From IMG/VR virus record IMGVR_UViG_3300033463_000007, positions 159,865 through 223,864 of that record: 64,000 nucleotides of DNA. One strand, 5' to 3'. Both the position numbers and the translations under genes were made by a program. This document shows, piece by piece, positions 2,461 to 55,066 of this stretch (its first letter is position 1; each line of letters starts with the position of its first letter). The stretch is from a virus (Duplodnaviria > Heunggongvirae > Uroviricota > Caudoviricetes). Under the pieces are notes generated by a model. The model did not search any database. It worked only from the letters and a program-made list of their open reading frames with translations, and was not told the DNA's origin.

Positions 2461-5400
2461 ATGCCAACAAATAAAGAAAACTTTATAAATAAATTAAATA
2501 CCCTAGCTGATGCTGTTAAGACCAAGAGACCACTAGCTGAGGGTACGGATTATACTATTAATAATATTGTTGATGCAATTAGTAGTTGGGAGCTTAGACG
2601 AGCAGAAGAAAGCCCAACAGTTGATTTAGATTTATCTAATGGCAATCAGGTAATTATACCTACTGTAAGTGGTAATGTCTTATCTCAGGTCACTATTCGG
2701 CAACCGGTAGATCAGGAAGGCCATAATATATTTATTTCTGATAATATTAGGTCTGGAATAACTCTTGGAAATGTAACCGGAACTTATACAGCTGTAAATG
2801 AGAATGCTGTAACAGCTGCAGATATAAGATTTAATAAAAAAGCCTTTGTAAATGGTAGCGATGTAATAACTGGTTCCATGTCAGATTATAGTGGAACTAC
2901 TTTAATTGTTCCAACTTTTACAAATGGTACACCCTCACAGTCATCAACATCCCATATAGCTACACAAAATACTTTTGTAACAAGTAATATTAATTATGCA
3001 AATATTTGGTATTCAAATTTAGACCCCACAAAGATTCTTAATGGTGAAACAGTCAATATTGGCACTACTGATGATATTAGTACACCAAAAGTTACTGTTA
3101 CTGGTACTTACACTCCAGCAGTTGAAACTCTAATTCTTGACCAACCAAATGAACCCGGTGGTTTAAAACTTAATTATCAAAATACAGTTGGTTATGATTT
3201 ACCAGTACAAATTTTAACACACAGCCAAGGTAAATTAATAGAACAAGTTATATTATATCGTCCTGAAAATCTTATACCGGAAAATATTAAATATAATATA
3301 CCTATTGCAGGTACTGCTGGTACCTTTACAAGTAGTTCTACTGTTTCCAGTGGACAAATTGCGGCAACAGCTGATAAAATACGTTCTGGTTATTCCGCAT
3401 GGGTAAATGGTACTGAAATACAAGGTTCAATACCTAATAAAAGTGCAGAGGTTTATAATCCAACTATTGCATCGTCAAGTTCCGGCACAGCCACTTTAAA
3501 TCCTATAACAATTAGTTCTGGTCAATACTTAACTGGAAATCAAACGATTACAGCGACAGAGGTAAGAGGGTTAAATCCTGAATATATTGTTTCTGGGCAT
3601 AGCATTCAAATTGGCTATACACAAAATGATACTTTTAGACCAATTCATACAACACAAGGCTCTTACACAGGTATTGCTTCAGAATATATTGAGCCAACAG
3701 CTATAGAGTTTAATGAATTAATTTTCCGCACTACTACAAGTGGAATTACGATAGATTCAGATGTTGTAGTAAATCCAGAACCTGGGCATGCTTTTAGTCA
3801 GGTTAAAATTAAAAGGCCAACTGATATGTCTGCAGTTGCTGCAAAAATTGCTTATAATCAAACTATACACGGTATTTCTGGTACATTTTCTTATGAAGCA
3901 AATAATTCTATAACTGCCAGTTCAATTAGAAATGGCAAAGTTGGTTTTGTTAATGGTAATAAAATTATCGGTACAATGCTTGAGCGTGATGTCGGTAATA
4001 TTGGACTTTCTACTACAGATTATACAATAGCAGCAAATCAATATTTAGCAGGTGCTCAGACAATTTATGGTGCCAGAATAACAACCACGGATACTGGCGG
4101 TACAATAGCTGTTAATGATTTTAATGCTTTAGCCGGATTACTTGTTAAAGATGTAACTTTAGATATTGGTGATACTGGTGATACTGATAGACTTGCTCAT
4201 ATTGTTGGTACATATGATAACCAAAAACCGGAAGAAGTTGGAAATGTAACATTAAATTTCTGAGATTCAACACATTCAACTTATTATGATCAATTAGACA
4301 TTAATCCAAGCACACAAAATACAGTTTTTTCTCATGTTTTAATAAATAAACCAGCGACTTTAATTAAAGGAAATATTGCATCTGGAGTTTCTATCGCTGG
4401 TGTTACAGGTACTTATACAAATGATGCAAATGCAACATCAAGTGACATTTATCCTGGCAAAACTGCTTATGTACAGGGCACTAAAGTTTCTGGCAGCATG
4501 CAAACACGTGCCGCTGCAACAATTTATCCGAGTGCTTCAGACCAAACAATTGCTTCAGGTCGTTATTTAACTGGTACTCAAACAATAAAAGCAACGACTG
4601 TTAAAGCATATGACCCAGTATTACAAGAAACTGTTCCGTTAGATCCTGATTATATTATTAAGGGTGTTGTTGTAAAAGTTGGTGATGAAGTTAATAATGC
4701 TCGTGTTGCTAGTATAACTGGTACTTTCGATTATACTGAATTTATTGAAGGTCCAAGAGAAGTTGATTTATCATTAGCTTCTGGCAATCAAACTATAAAT
4801 CCAGAGGCCACTGGATATTCAATGAGCCAAATAATAATTAAGAAGCCCGTAAATTTATTAGCTAGTAATATTAAAAAAGATGTTGAAATTGCAGGTATTA
4901 CTGGAACATTTGAAGAAATAAAAGTATTAGAAATAGATGCAAATTACAATTCAGCATCAACTATTAATCTCACTACTGCACAAAAGAATGTTTTTACTTC
5001 TTTGGCTTTAGGTAGTACTATTAAATTAAAATTTACACAATCTAATAGTATTAAATATTTTACTAAAACCTATTCAAGCACCTCCGGTAGTGAAACATTT
5101 ATTGTTCTTACTGCACCAATTTCAAATGATTTTGAATGAAGTAATACTAAATATATTAGAACAAAAACTGAATTATGTTATATTGCTATTGCTAATAATA
5201 CAGCAGAATTACATTTGGTATATAAACAAGGCTCGTCTGCTGCTTTATTAGGTGAAATTAGGCCTAATACTGATCTTGTATTAGACCCAAGCACTGAAAC
5301 ACGTATTTATGATTATACAGATGCTACAATAGGTATTCCTACATCATTAACGGTTACAGGTCTTGCTTATACAGCTGTTCAACCAGAGCAGCTTTTACAG

Positions 5401-8399: not shown

Positions 8400-9200
8400 A
8401 TGGGAAAAAATATTTCTGTTAATGGCAGACAGTATAATTCAATAACAAAATTAAAAGTACAAAAAAATATATCTACAGAGAGCTATCATGTTTATGATTC
8501 TTATTACTCTGATGATTTATTTGAAAATACTAAATTAGTAGCGCCTTCTTTAGAGGTGCAGACAATTAACCCATCTGGTGATAATGTTGCTCTTAGTCAA
8601 GTAGTAGTACAAAGTATCGGAGCCGAAAATTTAATTCCAGAATATATTCAGGCGGGAAAAACAATTTCAATAAAAAGTAATGGTTTAGATGATAATCCTG
8701 ATTCATATCTTATGTCGGTTACAGGTACTTATACAAATGATGCAACAGCTACTGCTAATGATATCTTAGTAGGAAAAACTGCTTATATTAAAGGTGAAAA
8801 AGTTGTAGGTGCTAGATTAACTTCTGGTGGTATTATCCCAGAAGGTATTGCCTATATTACAACCACAGCACCAACTAATGTTTATAATTTTGCAGTTGCA
8901 AAAGTTGATAGCGAATTTCTTAGACCCGAAAATATTAAACAGGGTATAGAAATTTTAGGTAAAGTTGGTACTTATGGTGGTATCGATACAACAACTGCAA
9001 TAGATTTTTCAGCAGTTCATTTAGGCTATTTTTATAATGATGCTTTTTATACTGATAAAGCACATGTACATTTAATAGAGCCAGTTGATGGCAATACTTA
9101 TATGGATAAAGTATCTGCCAATGCTTATGATTATATAAATAATAGATATACTATTACCACGTCCTGGGTGGTAAATGTTGATCCAGCACAATTAGACTAA
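8400..9200 (+). CDS. Tail fibre-like protein (TGTYTNDATATANDILVGKTAYIKG module)
   Basis: Shares repeat modules with genes at 1241, 2461, 4376 region. Confidence 0.5.
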   Translation: MGKNISVNGRQYNSITKLKVQKNISTESYHVYDSYYSDDLFENTKLVAPSLEVQTINPSGDNVALSQVVVQSIGAENLIPEYIQAGKTISIKSNGLDDNPDSYLMSVTGTYTNDATATANDILVGKTAYIKGEKVVGARLTSGGIIPEGIAYITTTAPTNVYNFAVAKVDSEFLRPENIKQGIEILGKVGTYGGIDTTTAIDFSAVHLGYFYNDAFYTDKAHVHLIEPVDGNTYMDKVSANAYDYINNRYTITTSWVVNVDPAQLD

Positions 9201-9345
9201 ATGAATACAATTATTTTATGTTTAAAATAAAGTATTCAGTTTTATTGAATGCTTTATTTTATTCTTTTATTGTATAATATAATTGTATTTATAGGATCAA
9301 TAGAATCTGATAGATTCTTGATGATAATAAAGGAGTTTAATTTAA

Positions 9346-9951
9346 ATGGGTTTTTGTAAGACTTGTTATAAAGAAAAAATAAACCCTCAAGTTAAAGATG
9401 AAGATTTATCATATGAATTAGATGAAGCAATTTGTGAGTGTTGTGGAGAATTAAAGCATTTGGTAAAAATACCAGAAATTAAAGATCCAAACATAATGAC
9501 TGTTGCTGAATGTAATTTAGAAACACAAAAACATATAGAAAATGTTCGTAAATATATTAGATTTATTACAGATAAGTTGACACAGAGAGGTGTAGATCAT
9601 GATGCAAGTAAGATGGAATCACCGGAAGTTGAATTATTTGCACAATATACAAAAAAACTAGCCTCTTTAGTTTATGGTAGTGATGAATATAAAGCAAATT
9701 TAGAAGCTTTACAACCTGCACTAGAACATCATTATGCTACCAACAGACATCACCCAGAGCATTTTCCTAATGGAATAAATGATATGAATTTAATTGATAT
9801 TATTGAAATGTTTTGTGATTGGAAAGCTTCTTCTTTACGACAGAATGATGGAAATTTATTAAAAAGTATTGAGTTAAACACTGAGCGATTTAATATTGAT
9901 CCTCAGCTAAAACAGATTTTTATTAATACTGCTAATTTATTAGATGATTAA
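9346..9951 (+). CDS. Hypothetical protein, H-H...N-R-H-H...DM motif family (paralog of 34561..35124)
   Basis: LEHHYATNRHHPEHF...DMNLIDIIEMFCDWKASS resembles SWNHHYHHNKHHFQFWW...ESVCDMLGASKAY in the paralog; possible metal-dependent hydrolase. Confidence 0.35.
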   Translation: MGFCKTCYKEKINPQVKDEDLSYELDEAICECCGELKHLVKIPEIKDPNIMTVAECNLETQKHIENVRKYIRFITDKLTQRGVDHDASKMESPEVELFAQYTKKLASLVYGSDEYKANLEALQPALEHHYATNRHHPEHFPNGINDMNLIDIIEMFCDWKASSLRQNDGNLLKSIELNTERFNIDPQLKQIFINTANLLDD

Positions 9952-10005
9952 ATACTTTAAAGAGAATAAAGATAATTAAAAGAGTATTGGATATTCAATA
10001 CTCTT

Positions 10006-10020
10006 TTATTGTATAATATA
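10006..10020 (+). promoter_or_regulatory. Terminator-promoter cassette: hairpin 9980-10005 then TTATTGTATAATATA
   Basis: AAGAGTATTGGATATTCAATACTCTT hairpin immediately followed by extended -10. Confidence 0.5.
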
Positions 10021-10048
10021 ATACTATAGTAATAAAAGGAGATTTATT

Positions 10049-10270
10049 ATGTCAAATTTTGAAGAGCCTTCTGTAAAAGCACATATAGGAACTGGTGGAA
10101 TTAGCTTTACTGGGCTTTTAACTATTGTTTTTATAGTTCTAAAACTTTGTGGTGTTATTGATTGGAGTTGGTTTTGGGTATTAAGTCCAACTATTTTTGG
10201 TATAATTTTATTAATATTGATTATATTTATAGTAGCTATTATTATTGCAGCTAAAGAGAGACATAATTAA
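10049..10270 (+). CDS. Small two-TM membrane protein
   Basis: Highly hydrophobic 73-aa ORF with good RBS AAAGGAG. Confidence 0.35.
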   Translation: MSNFEEPSVKAHIGTGGISFTGLLTIVFIVLKLCGVIDWSWFWVLSPTIFGIILLILIIFIVAIIIAAKERHN

Positions 10271-15281: not shown

Positions 15282-15797
15282 ATGGAAATTTTATATTGTA
15301 AATATTGCGGTAAAGAATGTAAAAATAAAAATAGTTTAGCTCAGCATGAACTTAGATGCTCTTACAATCCAAATAGGCTAAAATATTCTACCTGGAATAA
15401 AGGAAAAACAAAAGAAGTTGATGCACGATTAGTTAGAAAAGTTACAGATGGTTTTAGTAAAGTTGGATGGCGTCATTATCAACAGTATCTTGCAGATAAT
15501 TCTATTGCTTGGGGGCAACAGAATATGCAGTGTTATAAAAAATATTTTTTAGAGGAACAACATCATTGTTGTGCTATTTGTGGCTGCTCCGATTTATGGC
15601 AAGATAAGCTATTAGTGTTTATTCTTGATCATATAGATGGTAATGCTGATAATAATAATCGTGAAAATTTACGTCTAATATGTCCTAACTGTGATTCTCA
15701 GTTAGATACTTTTAAATCTAAGAATAAAAAATCTGCACGAGCAAAACATAGAAATATAAAAGTAGTAACTGAGGAACAATATAAAGAATTATTTTAA
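15282..15797 (+). CDS. HNH homing endonuclease (zinc-finger + HNH)
   Basis: CKYCGKEC zinc finger; HHCCAICG...LDHIDGNADNNNRENLRLICPNCDSQL HNH motif; no TGA. Confidence 0.65.
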   Translation: MEILYCKYCGKECKNKNSLAQHELRCSYNPNRLKYSTWNKGKTKEVDARLVRKVTDGFSKVGWRHYQQYLADNSIAWGQQNMQCYKKYFLEEQHHCCAICGCSDLWQDKLLVFILDHIDGNADNNNRENLRLICPNCDSQLDTFKSKNKKSARAKHRNIKVVTEEQYKELF

Positions 15798-15861: not shown

Positions 15862-16443
15862 ATGGCAAAAGATCCATTAAAAACAGTTGGAGCAAGTAAT
15901 CTTTCTGACAAAGAACGAGCTAAAAATGATTATTATGCTACTGATCCTAAAACAACAAAGGCTTTTTTAGCTACATACCCATTAGATAAGACTAAGCTTA
16001 TCTGGGATCCAGGTAGTGGACATAATTTAATTATTAATGTTTTACAGGAGTATGGTTATAAAACATGGTCAACTGATTTATATAATTATGGTTATCAAGA
16101 TAATATTTTTGATTTTTTAACATATTCAAAAAAATTTGAAGGAATAATTTTTGGAAATCCCCCATATAAATTAGCTAATGAATTTGTAAAACACGCATTA
16201 GAAATAGTTACACCTGGAAGCCAAGTTATTTTTTTATTGCGTACGCTTTTTCTTGAGGGCCAGAAAAGATATAATGACATATTTAAACAAAAAAATTTAA
16301 AATTTGTTTTTGTATTTATAAATCGACAAGTATGTAGTACTAAAGATGATTTTACTGAAGGTAGTGCTATTTCATATAGTTTTTTTGTATTTGAAAAAGG
16401 TTTTATAGGAGAACCCACCATAAAATGGTTAGCTACAAATTAA
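15862..16443 (+). CDS. DNA N6-adenine (or N4-cytosine) methyltransferase
   Basis: IWDPGSGHN (motif I) and IIFGNPPY (motif IV NPPY). Confidence 0.6.
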   Translation: MAKDPLKTVGASNLSDKERAKNDYYATDPKTTKAFLATYPLDKTKLIWDPGSGHNLIINVLQEYGYKTWSTDLYNYGYQDNIFDFLTYSKKFEGIIFGNPPYKLANEFVKHALEIVTPGSQVIFLLRTLFLEGQKRYNDIFKQKNLKFVFVFINRQVCSTKDDFTEGSAISYSFFVFEKGFIGEPTIKWLATN

Positions 16444-16640
16444 AATATAGTGGTTATTGTATTATAAACTATACTACACAACAAATATTTTATGGTAAAA
16501 ACTTTGTAGAATTATCACAAACATCTGGTATTGCTGTTGCAGTAATTCAAAGAAATATAAAATTAAATAGAAAAGTAAAAAATATAGGTTATTATAAGTT
16601 GGATATTAATGGTATGCCAATAATAAAGGAGGTGATTTAA
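16425..16640 (+). CDS. Small hypothetical protein, possible HTH
   Basis: 71-aa ORF overlapping MTase 3' end; ELSQTSGIAVAVIQRNIKLNR helix-turn-helix-like. Confidence 0.25.
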   Translation: MVSYKLKYSGYCIINYTTQQIFYGKNFVELSQTSGIAVAVIQRNIKLNRKVKNIGYYKLDINGMPIIKEVI

Positions 16641-16641
16641 T

Positions 16642-17133
16642 ATGAAAGTGTTTATCATTAGTGATACACACTTTGGTTAAGGCCATACTAACATAATTAA
16701 ATATTGTAATAGGCCTTTTCAAACTACTCAAGAAATGGATGAAGTGATGATTAAAAATTGAAATGAAACAGTTTCTAATAAAGATACTATAATTCATCTT
16801 GGAGATGTTGGACTTAGTTCAAAAACATACATTTCTAGTATTGTTAAAAGATTACATGGTAATAAAATTCTTATTATGGGAAATCATGATAATTGGTCAG
16901 AGCAGGCCTATAGAGATATGGGATTTTCTACTGTAAGTAAATTTCCTATTTTATATAATAATTTTTATTTACTAAGTCATGAGCCCCTACAGTTAAGTGA
17001 AACGACTCCTTATTTTAATTGTTATGGACATGTTCATAATGATGAAAAATATCATGATATGGCTACAAGTAAATGTTTTTGTGTTGAAAGAACCGGCTAT
17101 AGGCCCGTACTATTATTTGAAAAAAATTAAGAG
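16642..17133 (+). pseudogene. Metallophosphoesterase (YfcE-like) interrupted by in-frame TAA at codon 13 (16678-16680), plus one TGA=Trp
   Basis: MKVFIISDTHFG-TAA-GHTNIIKYCNRPFQ...IHLGDVG...MGNHD...GHVH: all metal-binding motifs present and in one frame; the stop sits inside the conserved DTHFGH motif. Confidence 0.5.
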
Positions 17134-17141
17134 ATAAAATT

Positions 17142-18131
17142 ATGCAAAGAATGTTATCAGGAATAAAACCTACCGGAACTCCTACTTTAGGAACTTATTT
17201 AGGTGCAATTTTACCCTTTATAAGATACCAAAATGAATATGAGCTATTTATTTTTATTGCAGATTTACATGCCTTAACAACTTGTCAAAATGCTAAAGAA
17301 TTAAGAGATAATATTAATTTATTAGCTAAGATTTATCTAGCTGCTGGATTAGATTGTGGACAAAATAAAACTGTATTATTTAAGCAATCTGATGTATTAC
17401 AACATAGTCAGTTAAATTGGATTTTAAGTAATTATACACTAATGAGTGATCTTGAAATGATGACTCAATATAAACAAAAATGTCAGCAACTTGCAGCTAG
17501 ACAAGGAGTTAATGTATCTTTATTTACTTATCCTGTTTTAATGGCTGCAGATATTTTACTTTATAATACAGATTTAGTGCCTTGTGGTCAAGATCAAAAA
17601 CAACATATAGAATTAACACACGAGCTTGCCCGAAAATTTAACTCTATGTATGGTGAAACTTTTAAACTACCAAAGCCATATATAACCAAAACCGGCGCTA
17701 AAATAATGAGTTTATCTGACCCGACTAAAAAAATGAGTAAATCAGAGTCAGATAAAGGAACAATTTATTTAACTGATACTAAGGAAGTTATTTTTAATAA
17801 ATTTAAAAAAGCTGTCACTGATAGTGAAGGAAAAATTTATTATAATCCAGAAACTAAGCCTGGAATAAGCAATTTACTTACTATTTATGCTGCAATAAAA
17901 GATATTTCTATTCAAGAAGCTGAAAATATATTTAAAGATGAAAAAGATTACGGTAAATTTAAAAATGAAGTAGCTCAGATAGTTTGGCAATATTTAGATA
18001 CATTACAGTATAATATAAAACAAATTTCTGATAAACAAATATTTTTAACATTAGATGATGGTCAAAAACAGGCAGCTAAAATTGCATCAGAAACTCTATC
18101 CAAAGTATACAAAAAGGTGGGATTAAGATAA
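17142..18131 (+). CDS. trpS: Tryptophanyl-tRNA synthetase
   Basis: Class I aaRS: N-terminal MLSGIKPTGTPTLGTYLGAI, KMSKS motif KKMSKSESDKG; 329 aa; no TGA codons. Confidence 0.85.
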   Translation: MQRMLSGIKPTGTPTLGTYLGAILPFIRYQNEYELFIFIADLHALTTCQNAKELRDNINLLAKIYLAAGLDCGQNKTVLFKQSDVLQHSQLNWILSNYTLMSDLEMMTQYKQKCQQLAARQGVNVSLFTYPVLMAADILLYNTDLVPCGQDQKQHIELTHELARKFNSMYGETFKLPKPYITKTGAKIMSLSDPTKKMSKSESDKGTIYLTDTKEVIFNKFKKAVTDSEGKIYYNPETKPGISNLLTIYAAIKDISIQEAENIFKDEKDYGKFKNEVAQIVWQYLDTLQYNIKQISDKQIFLTLDDGQKQAAKIASETLSKVYKKVGLR

Positions 18132-18134
18132 AAT

Positions 18135-19196
18135 ATGTTTGATAGGCTTGAAAGTATATTAAATAAATATGATGAGCTTTCAATGAAATTAAGTTCTTCA
18201 GAAATTATTTCAAGTAATTTATATCAGCAATATAGTAAAGAGTTAGCAGATATTCAAGAAATTGTTGATACTTATTCTGCTTATAAAGACGCACAGGATT
18301 ATTTAGAACTACTTAAAGAAGATGAAGCTAAAAATACTGATTTGGAATTAAAAGTACTATATAATAGTGAAATTAAAGAAACTCAAAGTAAATTATCAGA
18401 GCTAGAAAATAATTTAAAATTATTATTATTGCCAGCTAACAAGGATGATTCCAAAAATATTATTATGGAAATTCGTGCAGGAGTTGGCGGAGATGAAGCA
18501 GCTATTTTTGCAGCAGATCTTTTTAATATGTATTTAAAATATACACAAAAACAAGGTTGGAATGTTTCAGTTAGTAGCTATACTGAAGGTGTTCTAGGTG
18601 GTTTTAAGGAAATTATCTTAAGTATTTCTGGTAAAAACGTTTATCAAAAATTAAAATATGAAGGTGGAGTACATCGGGTACAACGAGTACCAGAAACTGA
18701 GGCTAGAGGCAGAATTCATACATCAACAGCAACAGTTGCAGTACTTCCAGAAAGAACAGAAACAGAAGTTATAATTGATCCAAAAGATATTACTATTGGT
18801 TTATTTCATTCCGGTGGGGCTGGTGGTCAAAATGTAAACAAAGTTGAAACAGGTGTACGTATAACACATATTCCTACCGGAATGGTAGTTGCTTGTCAAG
18901 AAGAGCGGTCACAGCTACAAAACAAAGAACGTGCTTTTGAAATATTGCGCGCAAAGTTATGGGATTATTATAATACTCAAAATATTAATTCTGAAATAAA
19001 CCAACGAAATAGTATGATTGGTACTGGTGATAGATCAGAAAAAATTCGAACTTATAATTTTCCGCAGCATCGTATAACCGACCATAGAATTAATTATACT
19101 ACTTATAATATAGAAGAAGTATTACAAGGTAATTTAGATGATTTAATTGAACATTTACAAATTGCAGAAAATGCAAAATTGTTAATTAATCAATAA
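18135..19196 (+). CDS. prfA: Peptide chain release factor 1
   Basis: GGQ motif (SGGAGGQNVNKVETGVRITHIPTG), PxT-type tripeptide region RVPETEARGRIHTSTATVAVLPE, C-terminal HRINYT; 353 aa; no TGA codons. Confidence 0.85.
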   Translation: MFDRLESILNKYDELSMKLSSSEIISSNLYQQYSKELADIQEIVDTYSAYKDAQDYLELLKEDEAKNTDLELKVLYNSEIKETQSKLSELENNLKLLLLPANKDDSKNIIMEIRAGVGGDEAAIFAADLFNMYLKYTQKQGWNVSVSSYTEGVLGGFKEIILSISGKNVYQKLKYEGGVHRVQRVPETEARGRIHTSTATVAVLPERTETEVIIDPKDITIGLFHSGGAGGQNVNKVETGVRITHIPTGMVVACQEERSQLQNKERAFEILRAKLWDYYNTQNINSEINQRNSMIGTGDRSEKIRTYNFPQHRITDHRINYTTYNIEEVLQGNLDDLIEHLQIAENAKLLINQ

Positions 19197-27280: not shown

Positions 27281-27598
27281 ATGACGCAAAAAAGATTTAA
27301 TCAAATTGTTGAAGAAACTGTAAAAAGAAGTACAGACCTTTTGGTTGTAAAGCAGGCAGAATATAATTTGTCTAATGACAGATTTGATTCTTTTAAGCGA
27401 GGAGCTGGAATTACAGGATGGAAGCCAGATCAGGTTCTTCTTGGTTATTTAACAAAACATTTAGCCTCTATTGTAGATATGATTAATAGTGATCAGCAAT
27501 TTACAGAAGAAAAAATTGAAGAAAAAATTGGAGATGCAATAAATTATTTTCTTCTTCTTAGAGGCCTTTGGGAAGATATTGGAAAGGTTAAAAAATAA
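27281..27598 (+). CDS. Hypothetical protein (possibly MazG-like NTP pyrophosphohydrolase fold)
   Basis: 105-aa helical ORF, RBS GAGG. Confidence 0.3.
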   Translation: MTQKRFNQIVEETVKRSTDLLVVKQAEYNLSNDRFDSFKRGAGITGWKPDQVLLGYLTKHLASIVDMINSDQQFTEEKIEEKIGDAINYFLLLRGLWEDIGKVKK

Positions 27599-28281
27599 TG
27601 GAAATAAGTATTTATCCTTGTTTTAAACATTGGTTATCTACAGATGGGACTAAAAATAATGCTATTTGGTTTTATAGTGATCCTCATTTTGCAGATGCTG
27701 AAATGCCTTATATACGAAAAAATTATATAGGTGATGAAGAACAGGTTAAAAGAATAAATAGTAAAATTGGTAAAAATGATACTATAATTTTTTTAGGTGA
27801 TATTGGTGATATATCATTTATACAAAAAATTAGAGGATATAAAGTTCTTATTAAGGGTAATCATGATTCAGGTCCTTCTAAGTATCAAAGAATAGAACAG
27901 ATTATTTCTGAACAGGAGGCTATAGAAAAAAAATTAGATATTACTCTTTATAAAAAAATGTTTCATTCTACAATTGGTTACTATTACTATTATGATAATA
28001 AATTATTTGATGAAGTTTATGACGGAACTTTACAAATTAATTCAAAAATTATACTAAGTCACGAGCCCGTTGAATATGAATATTGTTTTAATATTCATGG
28101 TCACGATCACTCAAATTGGTATAATAAAGAAAATCATTTAAATGTTTGTGCAGAACATATTAATTATACCCCAATTAGTTTTAAAAGTATTCTTGAAAAA
28201 GGGGTATTAAAAAATATTCCAGATATTCATAGGGTAACTATTGATACAGCAACAGAAAATAAAAAAGAAAAACAAATCTAA
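27598..28281 (+). CDS. Calcineurin-like metallophosphoesterase
   Basis: SDPHF...LGDIGD...GNHD...HGHDH motifs. Confidence 0.55.
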   Translation: MEISIYPCFKHWLSTDGTKNNAIWFYSDPHFADAEMPYIRKNYIGDEEQVKRINSKIGKNDTIIFLGDIGDISFIQKIRGYKVLIKGNHDSGPSKYQRIEQIISEQEAIEKKLDITLYKKMFHSTIGYYYYYDNKLFDEVYDGTLQINSKIILSHEPVEYEYCFNIHGHDHSNWYNKENHLNVCAEHINYTPISFKSILEKGVLKNIPDIHRVTIDTATENKKEKQI

Positions 28282-28430: not shown

Positions 28431-29456
28431 ATGTCAGTAAAAGATGCGTTAATAGCTACTCATTTATTTTTAGAAAACGACTACTTTTTTCGGTATATTG
28501 ATTTAATTGAAAAAAATAAAAATAGAGTAAAACAAAAGTATAAAACTCAAAAACATCATATTATTCCAGCTATTGCTTTTAAATTATATAATTGAGAAGG
28601 TATTGATGCACCAGAAAATTTAGTTAATTTATTATATAAAGATCATATTTTAGCTCATTATTATTTAGCTTTAGCTACTAAAACTTCTGATTTTCAATAT
28701 AAAATGATTGCTGCTATAAATTTTATTTTAGGTAAAGCTAAACAAAGTAAAATAGATATACAAGAACTACAAACTTTTATCTTAAATTTGGAAAATTATC
28801 AAAATTTATATGAAAATTGAATTAAAGAAAGAAGTTTATTACTTCACTCCAAATTATTAGGTCATGAAACTTCTGAAGAAACAAGAAAAAAAATAAGTGA
28901 AGCAAATAAAAATAAAATTTATATTTATAAAGAAAATATAGTACGTGCTGTTCATAAAGAAGACTTACAATTATTTTTAGATAATGGTTGAACTTTAGGA
29001 AATCCTAACTGTCAAAAAAGAAAACAGACCACAGGACAGACTATTATACATAAAGAAGAAATTGAAAAATATATTTTTAAAGAAGACTTATCTTTATATT
29101 TAGCTAATGGTTGAATATTAGGACGAAGTGACCAACATAAAAAAGCAACACAGCAAGGAACACAAGCTTATTATGATAAATTAACAAAAGAAGAAAAAAT
29201 TAATAAATGTGCAACTAGACAAAATCAACACTGAGAAATGTCAGAAGAAACAAAGAAAAAAATAAGTAATGCAAAGTCTGGAAAAAAGCAATCTGAAGAA
29301 CAAAAACTTTTAAATAGTCAAAATAAAAAAGATACAATTTGAATGACTAATGGTCAACAAGATATTATGATTAAAAAAGATTTAGAACTTTATTATTTAG
29401 ACCAAGGTTTTATTCGAGGAAGAACTAATTATAAAAAAAATAAAAAAGGAGAATAA
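28431..29456 (+). CDS. Free-standing HNH homing endonuclease with NUMOD3-like repeats (341 aa, 9 in-frame TGA=Trp)
   Basis: KHHIIPAIAF HNH core; repeated SEETRKKISEANK / SEETKKKISNAKSG (NUMOD3) and LQLFLDNG-W-TLG / LSLYLANG-W-ILGR repeats; preceded by TTTGCTAAATTAATTAG motif; invisible in the standard-code ORF track. Confidence 0.55.
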
Positions 29457-35144: not shown

Positions 35145-35201
35145 ATGAAAACATTATTACTTATGCGAGGTGCCCCTGTTTTATATGCCTATAAAAGATA
35201 G
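35145..35201 (+). CDS. 18-codon ORF duplicating the N-terminus of the downstream Pnkp-like gene (MKTLLLMRGAP...)
   Basis: MKTLLLMRGAP vs MRTLLLLRGAP at 35323; own RBS AAAAGGA. Confidence 0.3.
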   Translation: MKTLLLMRGAPVLYAYKR

Positions 35202-35322
35202 AGCTAATAAAATTTTAAAATTACGTCGTATTAAAAAATAGTTTAAAAACTTTTAAAAATAAAATAATTATTATAATATATATATAATCTATAGATTATA
35301 TAATGGAAGGTAGGTGATTATT

Positions 35323-37539
35323 ATGCGCACTCTCTTACTTTTAAGAGGTGCTCCTTAGCCAGGAGCAGGTAAGTCAACTTGGATACAGCAACACAATTTA
35401 CATGATTATACTATTTGTCCTGATGAGTTACGAGTTCTTTGTGCCTCAAAAGAGCTTATGGCTAACGGTGAGTATACAATTACTCAAGAAAGAAATAATG
35501 AAAATAAAGTATGGTCTTTATTATTTGATATTCTTGAATATAGAATGTCAAGAGGTGAATTTACTGTTATAGATGCTACTTGTTCTAAAACAAGAGATAT
35601 TCAACAGTATAAGGATCTTGCAGATCATTATAGATATAGAGTATATATTGTAGATTTTACAAAAGTGCCTCTTGAAACTTGTTTAGCACAAAATAAGCAG
35701 CGTCATCCCGATAAGTGGGTTCCGGATGATGCAATTAAAAATATTTATGCTAGATTTGCTACCCAGCCTATTCCTAAAGGTGTGTCTGTAATTCAGCCTG
35801 ATGAATTTGATACAATTTTAGAAACTCCTTTTGATGTATCTAACTATAGAAAATTAGTATTCATTGGAGATATTCATGGTTGTTATGATACTTTAATGCA
35901 GTATCCTGATTTCAAAGATGGATTAAAAGATGATACAGAATATATTTTTATTGGAGACTATATTGATAGGGGCAATCAAAATTATGAAGTCTTAAAGTTT
36001 CTTGGCGAAATAAAAGACCTTCCTAATGTTTGCTTACTTGTAGGAAATCATGAAAATCATATTCAAGATTTTGGAGACGGTATTACTGCAAAATCTAGGG
36101 AGTTTGAAGAAAAAACTAAAGTAGAGCTTCAGACAAAGGGATATACAGAAAAAGAAGCTAGAATGTTTTATAGAAAACTTAGACAGTTTTCTCACATCAC
36201 TTGGAATAGTTTTGAAATTCTAGCTTGTCACGGGGGAATTCCTAATCTTACAAAAAATCTACTCTATGTACCTTCTGAAAAACTTATTAAAGGATCAGGG
36301 TCTTATAGTGATTATTTAACGGTTACTGCTTCTTGGATGGCCCAGACAAATAGTAATCAATATTTAATTCATGGTCATAGAAATACTGAAGGTAGTGAAA
36401 CACAGATTGCTGATCGAGTTTTTAATCTTGAAGGCAAAGTAGAATTTGGTGGGCAGCTAAGAATTGTTGAATTAGATAAAGATGGTTTTCATACTATTGA
36501 GCTTGATGATTGTCAGCCAATTACTGAAGATCTTAATACCGAAACTCGACCGGTAGAGACAGTTGAAGACGCCATTTCTTATCTTAGAAATAATAAGTTT
36601 ATTCAAGAAAAGAAATTAAATGAACAAATATCTTCATTTAATTTTACCCGTGATGCTTTTTATAAAGGAAATTGGAATAGACAAACAATTCTAGCTCGTG
36701 GATTATTTATTGATACTGAAGCTAAAAAGATTATGGCTAGATCATACGAAAAATTCTTTAAAATTGGTGAAGTAAATTCTACTGAATTAGCTGTTTTAAA
36801 AAGTAAATTACAGTTTCCTGTAAGTGCATATGTTAAAGAAAACGGTTTTTTAGCTATTGTATCTTATGATTATAGAAATGATGATTTATTCATTGCATCT
36901 AAATCGACTAATCAAGGAGACTATGTTGAATATATCAAGACTGCTATCGAACCGTATAAAATAAATTTATTTAATTATTTAAAATATGCTAATGAAAATG
37001 GCAATAATATCTCTATGGTATTTGAATGTGAAGATCCTGAGCATGACCCACACATTATTAAATATAATAAGCTTAGAGTAGTTTTATTAGATATAATTTC
37101 TAACCAACTTGATTTTTTTGCTTGGCCTTATGAGCTAACTAAAAAAGTTGCAGAAGAAGTAATTTATTGTCCTGTAAAAGAAAAAGCATATGAATTTAAA
37201 GATTGGGACTCTTTTAGGGAATTTTATTCTGAAATCCAAGAAGATGATTATCAGTATAATGGAAAATATGTAGAAGGATTTGTATTTGTAGATTCTAACG
37301 GATTTCAAACAAAGTGTAAGACTCCTTATTATAATCAATGGAAAAAACTTAGAGGTGTTGCAGACCAGACTCTAAGACAGGGTTATATAGTAAAAACAGG
37401 AATGTTAATTAATTCTTTAGAAAATCTTTTTTATGGTTTTTGTAAAGATTTATATAAAACTTATAGAGATCCTGAAACAAAAACTTATCCATTTAAAACT
37501 GATATTATATCTTTAAGAGAAAGGTTTTTAGTTAATTAA
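35323..37539 (+). CDS. Polynucleotide kinase-phosphatase-ligase (Pnkp-like RNA repair enzyme) with in-frame TAG at codon 12 (35356-35358)
   Basis: P-loop LLRGAP-TAG-PGAGKSTW; metallophosphoesterase GDIHG...GDYIDRG...GNHE; C-terminal nucleotidyltransferase/ligase VKENGFLAIVSY (KxNG motif I); ORF 35458..37539 is the same frame. Confidence 0.5.
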
Positions 37540-47080: not shown

Positions 47081-47285
47081 TTTTTATAAAAGTTACAGTA
47101 AAATTATTAGCTAAATTAAAAGAATAAAATAGCTAAGATAGAAAAAATAGCACAACCAAAGAAATTTGGTGTCGCAAAGCTAAAGGGCCCTTTCCGGGCA
47201 GCCAGTTGCTTCTAGGAGACATTACTCATGGAAGCTTTTATTTTATTTATATTTTATTAAAAATTTATATAAAGGGGAAAAATTT

Positions 47286-47927
47286 ATGAAATTAAGAAAC
47301 ACATTAGCACTTATTATGGTAGCAGCTATGCTTTGCTTTGTTGGTGTTGGCTTTGCAGCATGAACATTTATGAATATTGAAGATGCTGAAGTTAGTACAA
47401 TTCAGGATAAAGTTGCTGTCGGTATTGAATTAAATAATGGTTTTAAACTCTATAATGCAGCAGATGATGCTGAAATTACCGCACTTTATCTTATTTGTGA
47501 TGCTCCTGCTGGTGAAACAGATATTCTTAATGGCCAGGGTGTTTATTGGTCAACTTCTGCAACAGGTAAAGATGGTTCTGGTAATAAGTTAGCTGTTACT
47601 AATGTATATATTAAAGGTACATTAGCAAAAGCTGATGAAGACGGTGTCTGGGATAAAGCTACTGTTGATGTTGCATTTACAGCCGACTATACTGATTTAA
47701 GTTCAACTTATATTACTTTTGGTGTAGCTCCAACTATTGCTAATACTACTGGTATTACTGTTGCAAATAATGCAGTAGTTCAAAGTGCATCTTTTGTATT
47801 ACCTTCAGTTGCATATGTTGCAGCAAATCTTCCTCACAGTATTTCAGAGTTAACAGATATGAATACTGCCCTTGGAACAGACTTAAGCGGTACTGCTTTA
47901 AGATTTACAGCTCAAATTGTTGCTTAA
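47286..47927 (+). CDS. Secreted protein with signal peptide
   Basis: MKLRNTLALIMVAAMLCFVGVGFAA-W signal peptide; TGA=W joins to ORF 47370..47927. Confidence 0.4.
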
Positions 47928-50181: not shown

Positions 50182-50185
50182 ATGT

Positions 50186-50261
50186 CTGGGTGTAATTCAG
50201 TTGGTAGAATGCGTGATTTGGGATCACGATGCCGGATGTTCAAGTCATCTCACTCAGACCA
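50186..50261 (+). tRNA. tRNA-Pro(UGG)
   Basis: CTGGGTG-TA-ATTC-AGTTGGTA-GAAT-G-CGTGA-TTTGGGA-TCACG-ATGCC-GGATG-TTCAAGT-CATCT-CACTCAG-A-CCA. Confidence 0.7.
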
Positions 50262-51198: not shown

Positions 51199-51240
51199 AA
51201 AAGACCCCAGAATTCTGAGGTCTTTTTATTGTATAATATA
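51199..51240 (+). promoter_or_regulatory. Terminator-promoter cassette upstream of polA
   Basis: AAAGACCCCAGAATTCTGAGGTCTTT hairpin then TTATTGTATAATATA. Confidence 0.5.
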
Positions 51241-51267
51241 AAGAATAAATTTATAGTAGAGGTTGTT

Positions 51268-53037
51268 ATGTCTAGTTTATTTGGTGATGAATTTGAAATT
51301 AAAATTAAAGAACCAGTAGTTAAAGATTTAATTAATAAAACAAAAGCTAAGAAAGAAGCAGAGATTGATCCTGAAAAGCTTTTAAAATCAAAGAAGACCT
51401 CTTTACTCGATAGATTAGCTCTTATTAATGAAAATGTATCTAAAATTTTGGGTAAGCAAAAACATAATGTTTTAGTAATTAAAGATAAACAAACATTTGA
51501 AAATTATATTACTGAAGCCATTAAATCCGGTCGAATCGCAATAGATACAGAAACTAATAATTCAACAGACCCCGTAACTTGTAAATTAATGGGTCCTTGT
51601 TTCTATTATCCTGGTGGTAAACAGGCTTATGTACCTATTAATCATAGAAATCCGGAAACAAAAGAACGGCTTTCATGGCAATTAACAGAACAGGACTGTC
51701 AGGAGCAGTTTAAAAGACTTGTTGATAGCCATAATGAAATTATAATGCATAATGGCAAATTTGACTATGAAGTTATTAAATGTACATGTGGAATCGAAGT
51801 TGTTCCAGATTGGGATACTCTAATTGCTGCAAGATTAATAGATGAAAATACATTTAAAGATGCTGCTATTGGCCTTAAATCACTATATACTAAATATATT
51901 GATCCGGAGCAAGAAAAATACTCAATAGATCATTTATTTGCAAATGTTACATATGCTGATGTAGATCCAGATATTTTTGCTTTATATGCTGCCACAGACT
52001 CAATGATGACTGATAAAGTATATATTTGGGAGCATAAAACTTTTTATGATTTACCAGAAAATCAACCTGTATTAAATTTGCTTAGAACTATTGAAATGCC
52101 GATTATTCAGGTTACAGCTGAAATAGAATTACGCGGTGTTTTTATTGATCAGGAGCTTGGTGAAAGACTTAAGATAAAATATAATAATCAACTTAATGAA
52201 TTAGATAATAAAATTAATCAAATTCTAGTAGATATAAAACCGATTATTTCAACTTGGCGGCTTACAAAAGATGCAGTAGATCAAGCTAAACAATATGTTT
52301 CCGCAAAATCTAAAATGACAGCTGAAAAAATTGAAACAACATATCCTTTTATTGATAAGGATGGCAGACGTTATAAAATTGGTAAATCAAAGTCAGAACA
52401 GCTACCTGAAGATGTAAATCTTGCATCTCCTACACAACTTGCTATTTTATTGTATGATATTTTAGGTTGCCCAGTAATTGATAAAAAGAATCCAAGGGCT
52501 ACAGGTGAAGAAGAAATTGGTAAAATTGTTGAGAAATTAGAGTCAAAGGAGACAAATGATATTAAAGTAGCCGCGGCTAAACAGCTTTGTAGTAGCATTT
52601 TGCAGCGTAGAGGCTTAGCTAAGTTAATTACTACTTATATTGATGTTATTCCTGACTTGGCAAAGCATTGGCCAGACGGTAGAATTAGATATAGATTAAA
52701 TTCAACCGGCACAGACACAGGTCGTTTTGCCTCTGGTGGCAAGTTTAAATTCCTAGATGAAAATGAAAACCCAGTAGAATTAAACTCAATTAATAGCCAA
52801 AATTTACCTTCTCATAATGCAGAAATTAGACTTTTATTTAAAGCCAGTGAAATTTATAATAAATGTTATTGTAATGATGATGTTTATAAGATTCAAGTCG
52901 GTGATGAAGTTGAAACTATTGATGGCTGGAAAAATGTTAAAGAATTAAAAGTTGGTGATGTTATTATTGGTGATGAAAGTCAGGATACTATTATTAATAT
53001 AGTTCAAAAAGAGCAAACTTATTTAATTTATATTTAA
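51268..53037 (+). CDS. polA: DNA polymerase I (family A), 3'-5' exo + N-terminal part of polymerase domain (exon 1 to ~52857; remaining 60 codons are in-frame read-through into the insertion)
   Basis: IAIDTETN (Exo I), HNGKFDYEV (Exo II), RIRYRLNSTGTDTGRFASGG and NLPSHNAEIRLLFKASEIY align to Klenow RIHTSFNQTGTATGRLSS and NLQNIP...IRQAFIAPEDY. Confidence 0.7.
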   Translation: MSSLFGDEFEIKIKEPVVKDLINKTKAKKEAEIDPEKLLKSKKTSLLDRLALINENVSKILGKQKHNVLVIKDKQTFENYITEAIKSGRIAIDTETNNSTDPVTCKLMGPCFYYPGGKQAYVPINHRNPETKERLSWQLTEQDCQEQFKRLVDSHNEIIMHNGKFDYEVIKCTCGIEVVPDWDTLIAARLIDENTFKDAAIGLKSLYTKYIDPEQEKYSIDHLFANVTYADVDPDIFALYAATDSMMTDKVYIWEHKTFYDLPENQPVLNLLRTIEMPIIQVTAEIELRGVFIDQELGERLKIKYNNQLNELDNKINQILVDIKPIISTWRLTKDAVDQAKQYVSAKSKMTAEKIETTYPFIDKDGRRYKIGKSKSEQLPEDVNLASPTQLAILLYDILGCPVIDKKNPRATGEEEIGKIVEKLESKETNDIKVAAAKQLCSSILQRRGLAKLITTYIDVIPDLAKHWPDGRIRYRLNSTGTDTGRFASGGKFKFLDENENPVELNSINSQNLPSHNAEIRLLFKASEIYNKCYCNDDVYKIQVGDEVETIDGWKNVKELKVGDVIIGDESQDTIINIVQKEQTYLIYI

Positions 53038-53101
53038 TTTTTTATCTTGACCGGTAAAATCAGTGCTAAATTAATTAGATTAATATTTTGGAGGTTTAAT
53101 T

Positions 53102-53896
53102 ATGGCATATGGTTTTATTTATAAAATAATAACTACAGCTTCTAATAAAGTTTATATTGGACAAACAACTAGAACTATTGAAGAACGTTACCAAGAGCAT
53201 TTGAAAGCAAGAAATAGTAAAGATAAAAATACTTTACATTTATATCTTGCTATGAATAGGTATGGCGTTGATACTTTTAGTGTTGAAAAAATTGATGAAG
53301 CTAATACACAAGAAGAACTAAATCAAAAAGAAATATATTGAATTAATTTTTATGATTCAATGAATAATGGATATAATATGGCACCTGGTGGTAGCATAAA
53401 TATTTTTGAATCTGAAAAAGTTAGAAAAAAACATGCAGCAAGCATGCGTGATCCAAAAACACGAGAAAAAATTTCTAAAACAATGCATGAGCTTAGAACT
53501 ACTTTTGGCTTTTCTGAGGAACATAAAAAAAAGATACGTGAATCAAGTCGAAAGCGAAAAGAAGAACGGGCAAAGTTAGGTTTAAAATATTATGATGATT
53601 GTTCACATTGTGCAACTAGATCAAAAGCAGTTTATTGTATATTAGATACCGGTGAAAAATTTGAATTTGATTCTATTTTACACGCTGGTAAATGATGATA
53701 TGAAACATACAAACCCTTTGGTGAAACTTATTCTACTGCTACCTATCAAAGAAAAATTGAAGCCTCTATTGCGGGTAAAGAAATTATTTTCCAATCCGGA
53801 CATGACAGTAGAAGTCAAGGTAAAAAAAATATTATTATTAAAATAACTAATATAAAATGATTTTATAAAGATAATTGAAATGGAGGTGATGCCTAA
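53102..53896 (+). CDS. GIY-YIG homing endonuclease inserted within polA (intron-encoded)
   Basis: GFIYKIITTASNKVYIGQTTRTIEERYQEHL GIY-YIG motif; ORFs 53102..53341 and 53360..53695 same frame joined by TGA; preceded by GTGCTAAATTAATTAG motif and RBS GGAGG. Confidence 0.7.
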
Positions 53897-55066
53897 TGAA
53901 AAAGTCTGTCAATATTCGCACAAAATATCGAATTGTTGGTTCAGACTATTCTTAAGTCCGGTCAGGAATTACGACTAGCTGCTTTTATTAGTCAAGATAA
54001 AAAATTACTTGATGCTTATGCAAATAATCAAGATGCTTATGCTATTATTGCAAGCACAATTTTTAATGTACCATATGAAGAATGCCTAGAATTTTATCCA
54101 GCTGGTACTGAGCTAGAAATTGGTGGCCAAAAGGTTATTGCCGGTAATAAAACTCATTTAAATCCAGATGGTAAGGCAAGAAGATCTGTTGGTAAAACAA
54201 TGGTGCTTGCTGGAAACTATGGAATGTCAGGTGCTGGTGCTGGTTCTCTTATGAAGAAAACAGCTAAAGAAGGCAAAGAACTCCTCGAAAAATATTTTCA
54301 GATGTTTACCGGACTTGGTAGTGCTATAGAAAAAGCAAAGGCAGATTTAAAAAAGACTGGTTACGTTGAAGGTCTTTGTGGGCGTAGACGTAGGCTGCCA
54401 GATATTTTTCTTTCTCCCTATGAAGTAAAATATAAAGATCCTGCTAAATTAGAGCAGCAGAATTTTAATCCATTTATAAATTGTCAAAATAGAAATTATA
54501 TTGATCCAACACTTCAGAAATATATTACAAAAACTAATTTTTGTAAAAATAATACTGACTATGAAGCTTTGGTACAGGAAGCTGCTAAAGATGGTGTAAT
54601 TGTACAGGCTAATACAGGTAGAATTGCGCAGGCAGAGAGACAGTGTTTTAATGCTTTAATTCAGGGCGCCGCTGGTACACTTACTAAAAAAGCTATGATT
54701 GATATTTTCAACGATGAACAATTAAGAGCTTGGGATACACATTTAATTGTTACAGTACATGATGAAGTATTAGTTGAATGTAAAGAAGAATATGCAGACT
54801 TGGTTGAGCAAAGATTACCGGAAATTATGATTAATGCAGCTAAAGAACTTGGCATTGAAGCGCCCAGTATGAAATGTGATCCGTATAATGTTACTAGATG
54901 GTATGCAGATAATGCAGCAGCAGCAATTTTAAAAGAATATAATAAAGCTGTTGAAAAAGGAAAGTCAAATGAAGAGGCTCTTGAAAAAGTTATTCAAGAG
55001 CATGAGGAAATTCCAGGAGAAGCCATTATTAAAACAGTTGAAACTGGTTGTGATTTAAATTTTTAA
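53897..55066 (+). CDS. polA: DNA polymerase I C-terminal part (motifs A, B, C); contains a 7-nt frame discontinuity inside motif A at 53947-53953
   Basis: Frame a: MKKSVNIRTKYRIVGSDYS-TAA (motif A Asp); frame b from 53954: GQELRLAAFISQD..., RRSVGKTMVLAGNYG (motif B), VHDEVLVE (motif C). Confidence 0.6.

Follow-up and report, generated by a model that had tools for sequence, protein, structure and literature searches.

How can a gene carry a stop codon in its most conserved motif and still evolve as coding sequence? The question arises from a metallophosphoesterase (MPE) gene in a 64,000-nucleotide (nt) stretch of Caudoviricetes DNA, hereafter the window, which covers positions 159,865 to 223,864 of IMG/VR virus record IMGVR_UViG_3300033463_000007. 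An earlier annotation made from the letters alone (the sequence-only reading) had reported an in-frame TAA in this gene and had proposed a very recent nonsense mutation, a sequencing error or low-level ochre read-through. Comparison with related genomes led us to a different view: the MPE TAA is probably an endonuclease-linked insert that disrupts a target site and is decoded by peptidyl-tRNA hopping. Two further genes of the window, a Pnkp-type gene and a split family-A DNA polymerase gene, carry inserts of the same layout. To our knowledge, only one natural case of programmed bypassing has been studied well, that of T4 gene 60 with its homologs; besides it there are the byps of yeast mitochondria and one candidate from a Streptomyces phage.

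A 6-nt insert splits motif I of the MPE gene

The TAA stands at 16678-16680, as reported. The gene as encoded reads MKVFIISDTHFG, then the stop, then GHTNII, and the GDVG, GNHD, SHEP and GHVH motifs continue in the same frame behind a start codon preceded by a strong Shine-Dalgarno sequence (AAAGGAGGTGA). The good ribosome-binding site and the in-frame downstream motifs of the sequence-only reading thus hold, and profile searches agree with them. With the gap repaired, the product matches PF00149 (E=1e-9; 39.3 bits, cut-off 21.5) and PF12850 (E=2e-8; 35.2 bits, cut-off 27), and the scores are nearly unchanged with X in place of the stop. By these profiles the protein is a calcineurin-like metallophosphoesterase of the aq_1665-like subfamily, and it aligns with aq_1665 itself (PDB 1xm7; E=4.5e-8) as ISDTHFGxGHTNII against ISDTHFY--HENII. 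The stop had been placed inside the DxH motif. It does lie within the extended family motif I, D-x-H-x-x-H-x-N-I-I, and its exact place is two residues past DxH.

As encoded, motif I is not contiguous: the TAA and one extra Gly codon split it. Skipping positions 16678-16683 (equivalent to skipping 16675-16680) gives DTHFGHTNII, and the exact canonical spacing is found only after this 6-nt skip. Among about 145 related loci from IMG/VR and metagenomes, D-x-H-x-x-H-x-N-I-I was always present, and neither an insert nor a stop was seen except in copies of the window allele. The repaired product is 71-81% identical in amino acids (aa) to intact 160-aa orthologs (L001-L003 and L071-L074). The IMG/VR orthologs L001-L003 align with one clean 6-nt gap, CAC TTT (gap) GGG CAT opposite CAC TTT GGT TAA GGC CAT. 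Judged from these alignments, the TAA is part of a 6-nt in-frame insertion (GGT TAA, equivalently TTAAGG) rather than a point substitution; the point nonsense mutation first proposed does not fit orthologs that have no codon there.

Two other elements of the sequence-only reading need revision. A second in-frame stop, TGA at 16759-16761, had been missed, and this codon specifies Trp. Reading TGA as Trp accounts for the second in-frame stop of the gene and not for the TAA. The gene at 27598-28281, described as an intact paralog, is related only distantly, at 26% identity, and is no backup copy; its Pfam match to Metallophos_2 (E=3.5e-4) does not reach the curated cut-off.

Copies of the stop-bearing allele come from three further assemblies. 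The Logan assembly of SRR10393135 (L070) is 100% identical to the window across the MPE gene. Two diverged strains, whose contigs were reached via two further truncated MPE products in the protein database, carry the insert as TTT GGC TAA GGC CAT (L151, SRR3457761) and as ACT CAC TTT GGT TAA GGC CAT GCT AAT with flanking substitutions (L154, SRR14630334). An error of sequencing or assembly, or a private nonsense mutation that arose very recently in a single sampled genome, has in its favor only what one would expect beforehand of any premature stop in a metagenomic contig. Set against a second identical assembly, diverged carriers from two other runs, a synonymous change in the adjacent codon and a lesion that is an insertion rather than a substitution, we give this explanation practically no weight.

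The three insert-bearing alleles evolve as coding sequence. Pairwise, they differ by 26-27 synonymous and 9-10 nonsynonymous changes, with a ratio of nonsynonymous to synonymous rates (dN/dS) of 0.06-0.10, about 0.07 for the gene outside the insert, and neutrality is rejected with P from 1e-12 to 2e-5. No other stop or frameshift occurs in them, and the substitutions beside the L154 insert are mostly synonymous, a record that does not suit a very recent mutation. The marks of a pseudogene, relaxed selection and extra lesions, are not seen here, although recombination with intact alleles could mask decay. Downstream re-initiation was rejected because it would lose D8 and H10.

Linkage of the MPE insert to a homing endonuclease gene

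What accompanies the insert? It lies 36 nt 3' of a GIY-YIG homing-endonuclease gene. L151 and L154 have this GIY-YIG/SegE-like gene at full length (323 aa), ending 1 nt ahead of the MPE start codon. The L151 product matches PF01541 (E=2e-7) and SegE/PF19835 (E=1e-5), so the adjacent open reading frame (ORF) contains a GIY-YIG catalytic domain, as does the ORF at 53102-53896 of the window. The small ORF annotated at 16425-16640, which likewise ends 1 nt before the MPE start, is a 66-codon remnant of the endonuclease gene. The rest of the window's copy has been replaced, and an HNH gene (15282-15797) is a nearby insertion relative to L151.

The window and L151 show 2 differences in a tract that runs from 16440 or further upstream to about 16725 (at least 285 nt) and covers the last part of the endonuclease gene as well as the beginning of the MPE gene with its insert. 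The same tract is 98-99% identical between strains; the flanks are about 77-80% identical, and the genes for tryptophanyl-tRNA synthetase (TrpRS) and release factor 1 (RF1) about 80%. This near-identical stretch from endonuclease to insert looks like co-conversion. The closest intact MPE allele, L156 (>90% aa identity), reads CAC TTT GGA CAC, and it is without the endonuclease gene, because similarity ends 14 nt upstream of its ATG. Endonuclease-plus therefore pairs with insert-plus (L151, L154) and endonuclease-minus with intact (L156), a pattern from which we conclude that the insert travels with the endonuclease gene.

Two observations concern MPE genes in other genomes. An ortholog with 67% identity (L077 2913-2960, Ga0247608_10041740) has 1 nt inserted precisely where the window has its insert, and reads CAC TTT C GGA CAC. 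Its expression would call for a +1 shift on UUU_C ahead of a rare CGG; the gene is otherwise intact and has no endonuclease gene nearby. It may have escaped cleavage by this indel and compensate by frameshifting, it may be dead, or the extra base may be a fault of assembly. A different phage has, just 3' of an intact MPE gene, an endonuclease-like ORF (L003 3731-4531) that contains NUMOD-type repeats and ends in a duplicated MPE C-terminus (CVERIGYRPKLLFEKN), and the MPE gene thus seems to be a repeated target of mobile endonucleases.

A second site in a Pnkp-type gene

Does the MPE insert have counterparts in the window? A scan for in-frame stops found a second site, inside the Walker A motif of a Pnkp-type gene. 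The gene begins MRTLLLLRGAP-stop-PGAGKST, with CCT (35353-35355), TAG (35356-35358) and CCA (35359-35361) in succession and an insert of 6 nt. Orthologs read RGAPGxGKST, and the Walker A spacing is fixed. Upstream of the gene lies a relic of its original start, and the N-terminus of the intact ortholog (P0121/L153), MKTLLLMRGAPGAGKST, is identical to that relic.

The Pnkp site has an endonuclease of its own. In L155 a 287-aa GIY-YIG-like ORF (3984-4846), readable only with TGA as Trp, sits between the relic and the new start module; it is tied to the endonucleases of L151 and of window 53102-53896 by BLASTP only (E=2e-7), and it has no Pfam match. The window and L152 retain mere remnants of this ORF. 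The start module, 42 nt long and containing CCT TAG CCA, does not differ between three genomes (the window, L152 and L155), although their gene bodies are separated by synonymous divergence (dS) of 0.4-0.8. The window's gene body is nearer to that of the intact L153 than to that of the TAG-bearing L152, and the start module must therefore have moved horizontally.

Codons 13-45 of the Pnkp gene, from the stop to the next Met, show 13-14 synonymous against 2 nonsynonymous changes. They evolve as coding sequence, which rules out re-initiation at that Met. Two further ideas were dropped: a 184-nt Pnkp segment considered as a repeated mobile module has no second copy in the window, and a supposed decayed relic start in L152 is the ribosome-binding-site region of a small RHH gene.

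A third site in a split family-A DNA polymerase gene

The third insert is 7 nt long and falls inside motif A of the DNA polymerase, near the start of part 2 of a gene that is divided in two around a third GIY-YIG gene. Part 2 begins MKKSVNIRTKYRIVGSDYS, and the insert region comprises TCT (53950-53952), TAA (53953-53955), G (53956) and TCC (53957-53959), in the context ATG...GGT TCA GAC TAT TCT TAA G TCC GGT CAG GAA TTA CGA. A 7-nt move of peptidyl-tRNA-Ser from UCU to UCC yields ...IVGSDYSGQELR..., which is the sequence of the intact 387-aa orthologs (P0247, P0248 and P0251); L163 reads TAT TCC GGG CAA at this point. The repaired product aligns without a gap to motif A of Klenow polymerase, VIVSADYSQIELR. 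Read-through cannot rescue this gene, because the insert is 7 nt and the frame changes. Re-initiation downstream was rejected as well, since the catalytic Asp is encoded only 5' of the stop.

The insert is found as TCN TAR N TCN in six distinct alleles, down to 44% identity. The window has UCU UAA G UCC. UCU UAG G UCU occurs in L162 (90% identity to the window) and in L157-159 (73%), UCG UAA G UCG in L160/161 (65%), UCU UAG G UCA in L164 (about 60%) and UCG UAG U UCG in L165 (44%). Every allele has TAA or TAG as its stop and G or T as its spacer, and the Ser codons on either side can in each case be read by one tRNA: UCG, readable by a UCG-only tRNA, is paired only with UCG (twice), and UCU pairs with UCU, UCC or UCA. 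L164 and L165 were found by a pattern that required TCN for each of the two Ser codons, so that in these alleles the codons are informative at their wobble bases alone. All alleles keep (I/V)GSDYS in frame 0 up to the stop and continue with GQE in frame +1, and changes in the 19-codon leader are mostly synonymous.

The endonuclease gene beside this insert has fared less well. It is down to 17 codons in L162 and is absent in L164 and L165. Since the endonuclease is 74-90% identical between carriers and has been lost in L164 and L165, the polymerase cassette is old and has outlived it. The polymerase gene that carries the insert is presumably essential, and, as far as comparison of the alleles can take us, the polymerase case makes stop hopping in this phage group appear close to unavoidable.

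Other ways of expressing the polymerase were set aside. A +1 frameshift with two extra residues is disfavoured: the K, R or S that it would add is not conserved, the spacing of motif A would be broken, and the matching of the flanking codons would be left unexplained. A group I intron does not suit inserts of 6-7 nt or intact relatives that have the same split polymerase with its own start, and in Rfam searches no group I or II intron model reached the gathering threshold anywhere in the window; within 52800-54200 there was no match even at E<=1.

The polymerase locus has further peculiarities. The gene is split in all relatives, including the intact-motif L163, in which the place of the GIY-YIG gene is taken by a 536-aa DUF7487 gene. 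At its end, part 1 has a conserved tail of about 60 aa (window 52870-53037; also L157 and L163), VGDEVET..GW..V...GD...YLYI before the stop, that resembles a Hint/intein N-fragment. In L164, part 2 (about 8560-10130, reverse strand of the locus) has, besides the insert, a second interruption about 150 codons in, and similarity to the window protein begins again only some 1.3 kb further on, suggesting that another element is inserted there.

A common layout and how it might be decoded

The three sites share one layout: codon X, then UAA or UAG, then 0-1 nt, then a codon X' read by the same tRNA (GGU/GGC-UAA-GGC in MPE, CCU-UAG-CCA in Pnkp and UCN-UAR-N-UCN in the polymerase). The stop thus lies directly 3' of the take-off codon, and the gap is absent from orthologs at all three. 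Each site is 11-19 codons into the ORF that directly follows a GIY-YIG gene, and each occupies its target's most conserved motif, namely MPE motif I, Walker A and Pol A motif A. The endonuclease genes have decayed or been lost in several lineages, and the inserts and target ORFs have remained intact; no further lesion lies at or near the site in any MPE (3/3), Pnkp (3/3) or polymerase (6/6) allele. Linkage to a homing-endonuclease gene is therefore joined to persistence after its loss. When about 800 kb of DNA was scanned for more stops between synonymous codons near gene starts, none was convincing.

How might a ribosome deal with such a site? At the MPE insert, peptidyl-tRNA-Gly would occupy GGU or GGC in the P site with the slow-to-decode UAA in the A site. 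The tRNA would then unpair and re-pair with the synonymous GGC 6 nt 3', and decoding would continue at CAU to give ...DTHFGH.... Ribosomes that do not hop would release a 12-residue peptide, and the fraction that hops would make the MPE. Across the three sites, the tRNAs involved would be Gly-GCC, Pro-UGG and a Ser tRNA, each re-pairing 6-7 nt downstream, and the phage's own RF1 might tune the efficiency of the hop. On the DNA side, the insert most likely breaks the endonuclease's own target site, so that the carrier genome is not cut. CNNNG-type motifs occur at the three insert sites (CTTTG; CCYGG, as CCTGG; and CCGGG), and the Pnkp relic ends in ...CCTG. These motifs, the co-conversion-like tract and the pairing of endonuclease with insert would fit an enzyme that cuts the uninterrupted target and spares the insert-bearing allele, as indirect indications. 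The hop, its efficiency and the protection from cleavage are the parts of this account that we infer.

Does the RNA around the MPE insert assist? A 30-nt inverted repeat spans 16645-16674, MPE codons 2-11 (z=-3.6; 0/200 shuffles as good), and ends 3 nt short of the last base of the take-off codon. No local hairpin was found at the MPE insert itself, only this upstream one.

On balance, we lean slightly toward a broader proposal: that TGA-recoded gut phages carry a family of GIY-YIG cassettes with a 6-7-nt stop-hop as the target-disrupting element, and that hopping is routine in at least three of their genes, including a DNA polymerase. These would be the first natural stop-hops, and endonuclease-linked bypassing would then have arisen a second time, independently of T4 gene 60 and in a far simpler form.

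Could the stops have another explanation?

Several points weigh against hopping. The hop is read from sequence comparison, and work by Weiss in 1987 reportedly found synthetic stop-hops to be inefficient. No stimulatory sequence or RNA structure common to the three sites was found: at the Pnkp site the hairpin folds no more stably than shuffled versions do (z=-0.15), and the one 5' of the MPE insert loses strength through one mismatch in L154 and has no evident counterpart in intact orthologs. The MPE and Pnkp sites are younger than the polymerase site, each being sampled in three genomes within recently exchanged tracts; purifying selection on them could therefore partly predate the insert, which would have been recombined in front of an already constrained body. 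Variation of the MPE take-off and landing codons is minimal (GGU or GGC only), and pattern scans of IMG/VR and GTDB genomes returned 0 further MPE or Pnkp insert alleles. Finally, the phage may be able to do without the MPE, and null alleles can be spread by a selfish endonuclease.

The last point leads to a rather different account, in which the insert inactivates a dispensable MPE, spreads by linkage and protection, and leaves an intact ORF because the acquisitions are recent. Near-identity of the insert tract between strains whose flanks have diverged by about 20% does indicate spread that was recent or horizontal, the Pnkp module plainly entered a gene that was intact and left the old start behind as a relic, and the differing neighbourhoods that intact MPE orthologs occupy across phages suggest an accessory gene. 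However, a null allele needs no design, and yet all three sites consist of a codon, a stop, 0-1 nt and a synonymous codon, with a gap whose skipping restores the ortholog sequence exactly. The polymerase design is, moreover, old (endonuclease 74%, polymerase 44-90% identity) in a gene that is presumably essential, target alleles have stayed free of further lesions at or near the site where endonucleases decayed, and L154 has changed mainly at synonymous positions beside its insert. We therefore regard this account as unlikely, though it deserves to be kept in mind. Far less probable is read-through or local suppression, which would place an amino acid at the TAA and add two residues (G-X-G-H). 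The frame is kept at the MPE and Pnkp sites, and the phage already manipulates termination through TGA as Trp and its own RF1 and TrpRS; the sequence-only reading was right insofar as ribosomes may pass the stop. But two added residues would violate the D-x-H-x-x-H spacing that is invariant in the relatives, and the equally fixed spacing of Walker A. TAA and TAG end 69/69 window ORFs, which rules them out as reassigned sense codons, orthologs have no sense codon in their place, and a search for a suppressor tRNA within the window found none. Because the GGU-to-GGC hop restores the canonical HFGH exactly and the polymerase sister site shifts frame, ochre read-through is not supported, and it would leave the synonymous flanking codons unexplained.

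The stop could also be regulatory. Here it would act as an RF1-sensitive gate on a TrpRS-RF1 operon, by pausing, hopping or polarity in the manner of prfB, with the MPE itself secondary. The MPE, TrpRS and RF1 genes are indeed packed 11 nt and then 3 nt apart, and UAA and UAG are RF1 codons. On the other hand, the Pnkp and polymerase sites share the design with no release factor gene downstream, and intact MPE orthologs stand in unrelated neighbourhoods. As a replacement for hopping, such a gate seems at least as improbable as read-through, and it would be an addition to the hop model rather than an alternative to it.

Genetic code and genomic context

The window is phage-like, with 30% GC, and no close relative was found among GenBank phages. 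TGA is a sense codon (Trp), with 79 in-frame occurrences in 24 of the 69 window ORFs; TAA ends 65 of these ORFs and TAG ends 4, and only TGA is used as sense. About one third of the phage's genes use TGA as Trp, and structural-looking genes have up to 9 each. The coordinates of the features are collected in Table 1. As context, hopping at UAA and UAG would face competition from RF1, which is encoded together with TrpRS directly downstream of the MPE, and the phage-encoded tRNA-Pro(UGG) could read both CCU and CCA of the Pnkp site.

Table 1. Features of the window discussed in the text
Feature	Position	Strand	Remarks
GIY-YIG/SegE-like gene remnant, last 66 codons	16440..16640	+	98.5% aa identity to residues 258-323 of the L151/L154 gene
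MPE gene	16642..17130	+	160 codons with the 6-nt gap skipped; motifs SDTHFG^H, GDVG, GNHD, SHEP, GHVH
Proposed take-off codon GGT (Gly)	16675..16677	+	GGC in strain L151
In-frame TAA, proposed A-site stop at take-off	16678..16680	+	The reported finding
Proposed landing codon GGC (Gly)	16681..16683	+	Decoding would resume at CAT (His)
In-frame TGA = Trp (KNWNET)	16759..16761	+	TGG in L001-L003, L151, L154
TrpRS and RF1 genes	17142..19196	+	Directly 3' of the MPE gene, side by side
Relic of original Pnkp start, MKTLLLMRGAP, fused to a few stray codons	35145..35201	+	Same N-terminus as intact ortholog
3' remnant of second, different GIY-YIG-like endonuclease gene	35190..35241	+	About 95% nt identity to the end of the L155 ORF
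Pnkp-type gene (P-loop kinase, metallophosphoesterase, RNA ligase)	35323..37539	+	Stop inside Walker A
tRNA-Pro(UGG)	50186..50261	+	Phage-encoded
Family-A DNA polymerase part 1 (exonuclease and N-terminal polymerase region)	51229..53037	+	Matching L157/L163 ORF: PF01612, PF00476
Third GIY-YIG homing-endonuclease gene	53102..53896	+	Between the polymerase parts; PF01541 E=5.5e-7; orthologs 74-90% aa in L157-L161
DNA polymerase part 2	53896..55066	+	Resumes at GGT 53960, +1 frame (GQELRLAAF...)

Other elements of the window were noted in passing. A phage tmRNA (tag end ...SSMRAAA) is followed at once by tRNA-Pro(UGG) (49776-50261, + strand); that the tmRNA rescues ribosomes stalled at hop sites, and that the tRNA serves the CCU-to-CCA hop, is speculative. 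Two HNH-type endonuclease genes lie at 15282-15797 and 28431-29456, the latter with 6 in-frame TGA codons and adjoining the distant MPE relative at 27598-28281; no stop-bearing insert was found in the genes downstream of either. A c-di-GMP-I riboswitch (47139-47213, + strand; Rfam RF01051, 49.5 bits, above the gathering score) precedes an ORF (47286-47927) for a secreted- or membrane-protein-like product.

Comparison with known systems

The literature that we searched contained no natural stop-hop and no endonuclease-linked short bypass outside the gene 60 family, and public databases hold only truncated products for these insert-bearing MPE, Pnkp and polymerase genes. If hopping is true, useful natural bypassing needs no more than a stop between two cognate codons, ribosome hopping has on more than one occasion allowed homing endonucleases to break a DNA target without breaking its protein, and gene callers wrongly truncate genes of phage metagenomes. 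The sites are also small, portable test sequences for mechanistic study.

How do the sites compare with T4 gene 60? There, a non-coding insert in conserved target DNA blocks self-cleavage by MobA, is bypassed by ribosomes and outlives the endonuclease (bioRxiv 10.1101/2022.08.31.505936). The likeness is extensive: a free-standing endonuclease gene directly 5' of an insert-bearing conserved target, matched take-off and landing codons, and a stop after take-off. In both systems the target's own segment can give way to a start supplied by the insert (the Pnkp relic is reminiscent of 'HomR'), the endonuclease has often become a pseudogene or disappeared from loci that keep the insert, and most insertions look recent; the polymerase gene here is, in addition, split in two by the element. 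However, the gap is 3-4 nt (a 6-7-nt move) instead of 50 nt, neither a conserved take-off stem-loop nor a nascent-peptide signal of the gene 60 type is evident, and the nascent chains are 11-19 residues long. The endonucleases are GIY-YIG rather than HNH enzymes, the targets are MPE, Pnkp and Pol A rather than topoisomerase, and the carriers are TGA-recoded phages of the gut Firmicute type.

Synthetic stop-hops come closest in form. In the E. coli constructs of Weiss et al. (1987), matched codons flank a stop so that 9 nt specify one amino acid, and the product is two residues shorter than that of read-through; a 2016 review by Atkins et al., which covers these constructs, knew of no natural occurrence (PMC5009743). 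The MPE and Pnkp sites have exactly this layout. They differ from the engineered and reportedly inefficient examples in being natural, in recurring from strain to strain and in their linkage to mobile elements. The nearest published candidate is the terminase of Streptomyces phage phiHau3, in which 10-nt inserts starting with the rare UUA are proposed to be passed by a short bypass, on the evidence of comparative alignment and of mass spectrometry in E. coli with UAA (PMC10732093). As at our sites, the insert is short, is lacking in orthologs and occupies a highly conserved junction within a phage gene, and a slow A-site codon is the trigger, whereas its rare sense codon is tied to host physiology and it lacks linkage to a homing endonuclease; a true stop codon is used here.

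The enzymes have their own parallels. GIY-YIG endonucleases of the I-TevI type cut CN^NN^G (CNNNG) at a fixed distance from their binding site (PMC5009752). As with Seg-type and I-TevI-like enzymes, the endonuclease genes here lie between genes, their presumed target is in the neighbouring conserved coding sequence, and flanking markers are co-converted. Known Seg and Mob systems usually escape self-cleavage by point polymorphisms, introns or inteins, whereas the predicted protection here comes from stop-bearing micro-inserts. Lastly, the sites resemble prfB, the gene of RF2, in having an early in-frame stop at which a release factor competes with re-pairing of the P-site tRNA. In prfB that tRNA re-pairs on an overlapping codon (+1) in an autoregulatory circuit, whereas here it would re-pair on a non-overlapping synonymous codon.

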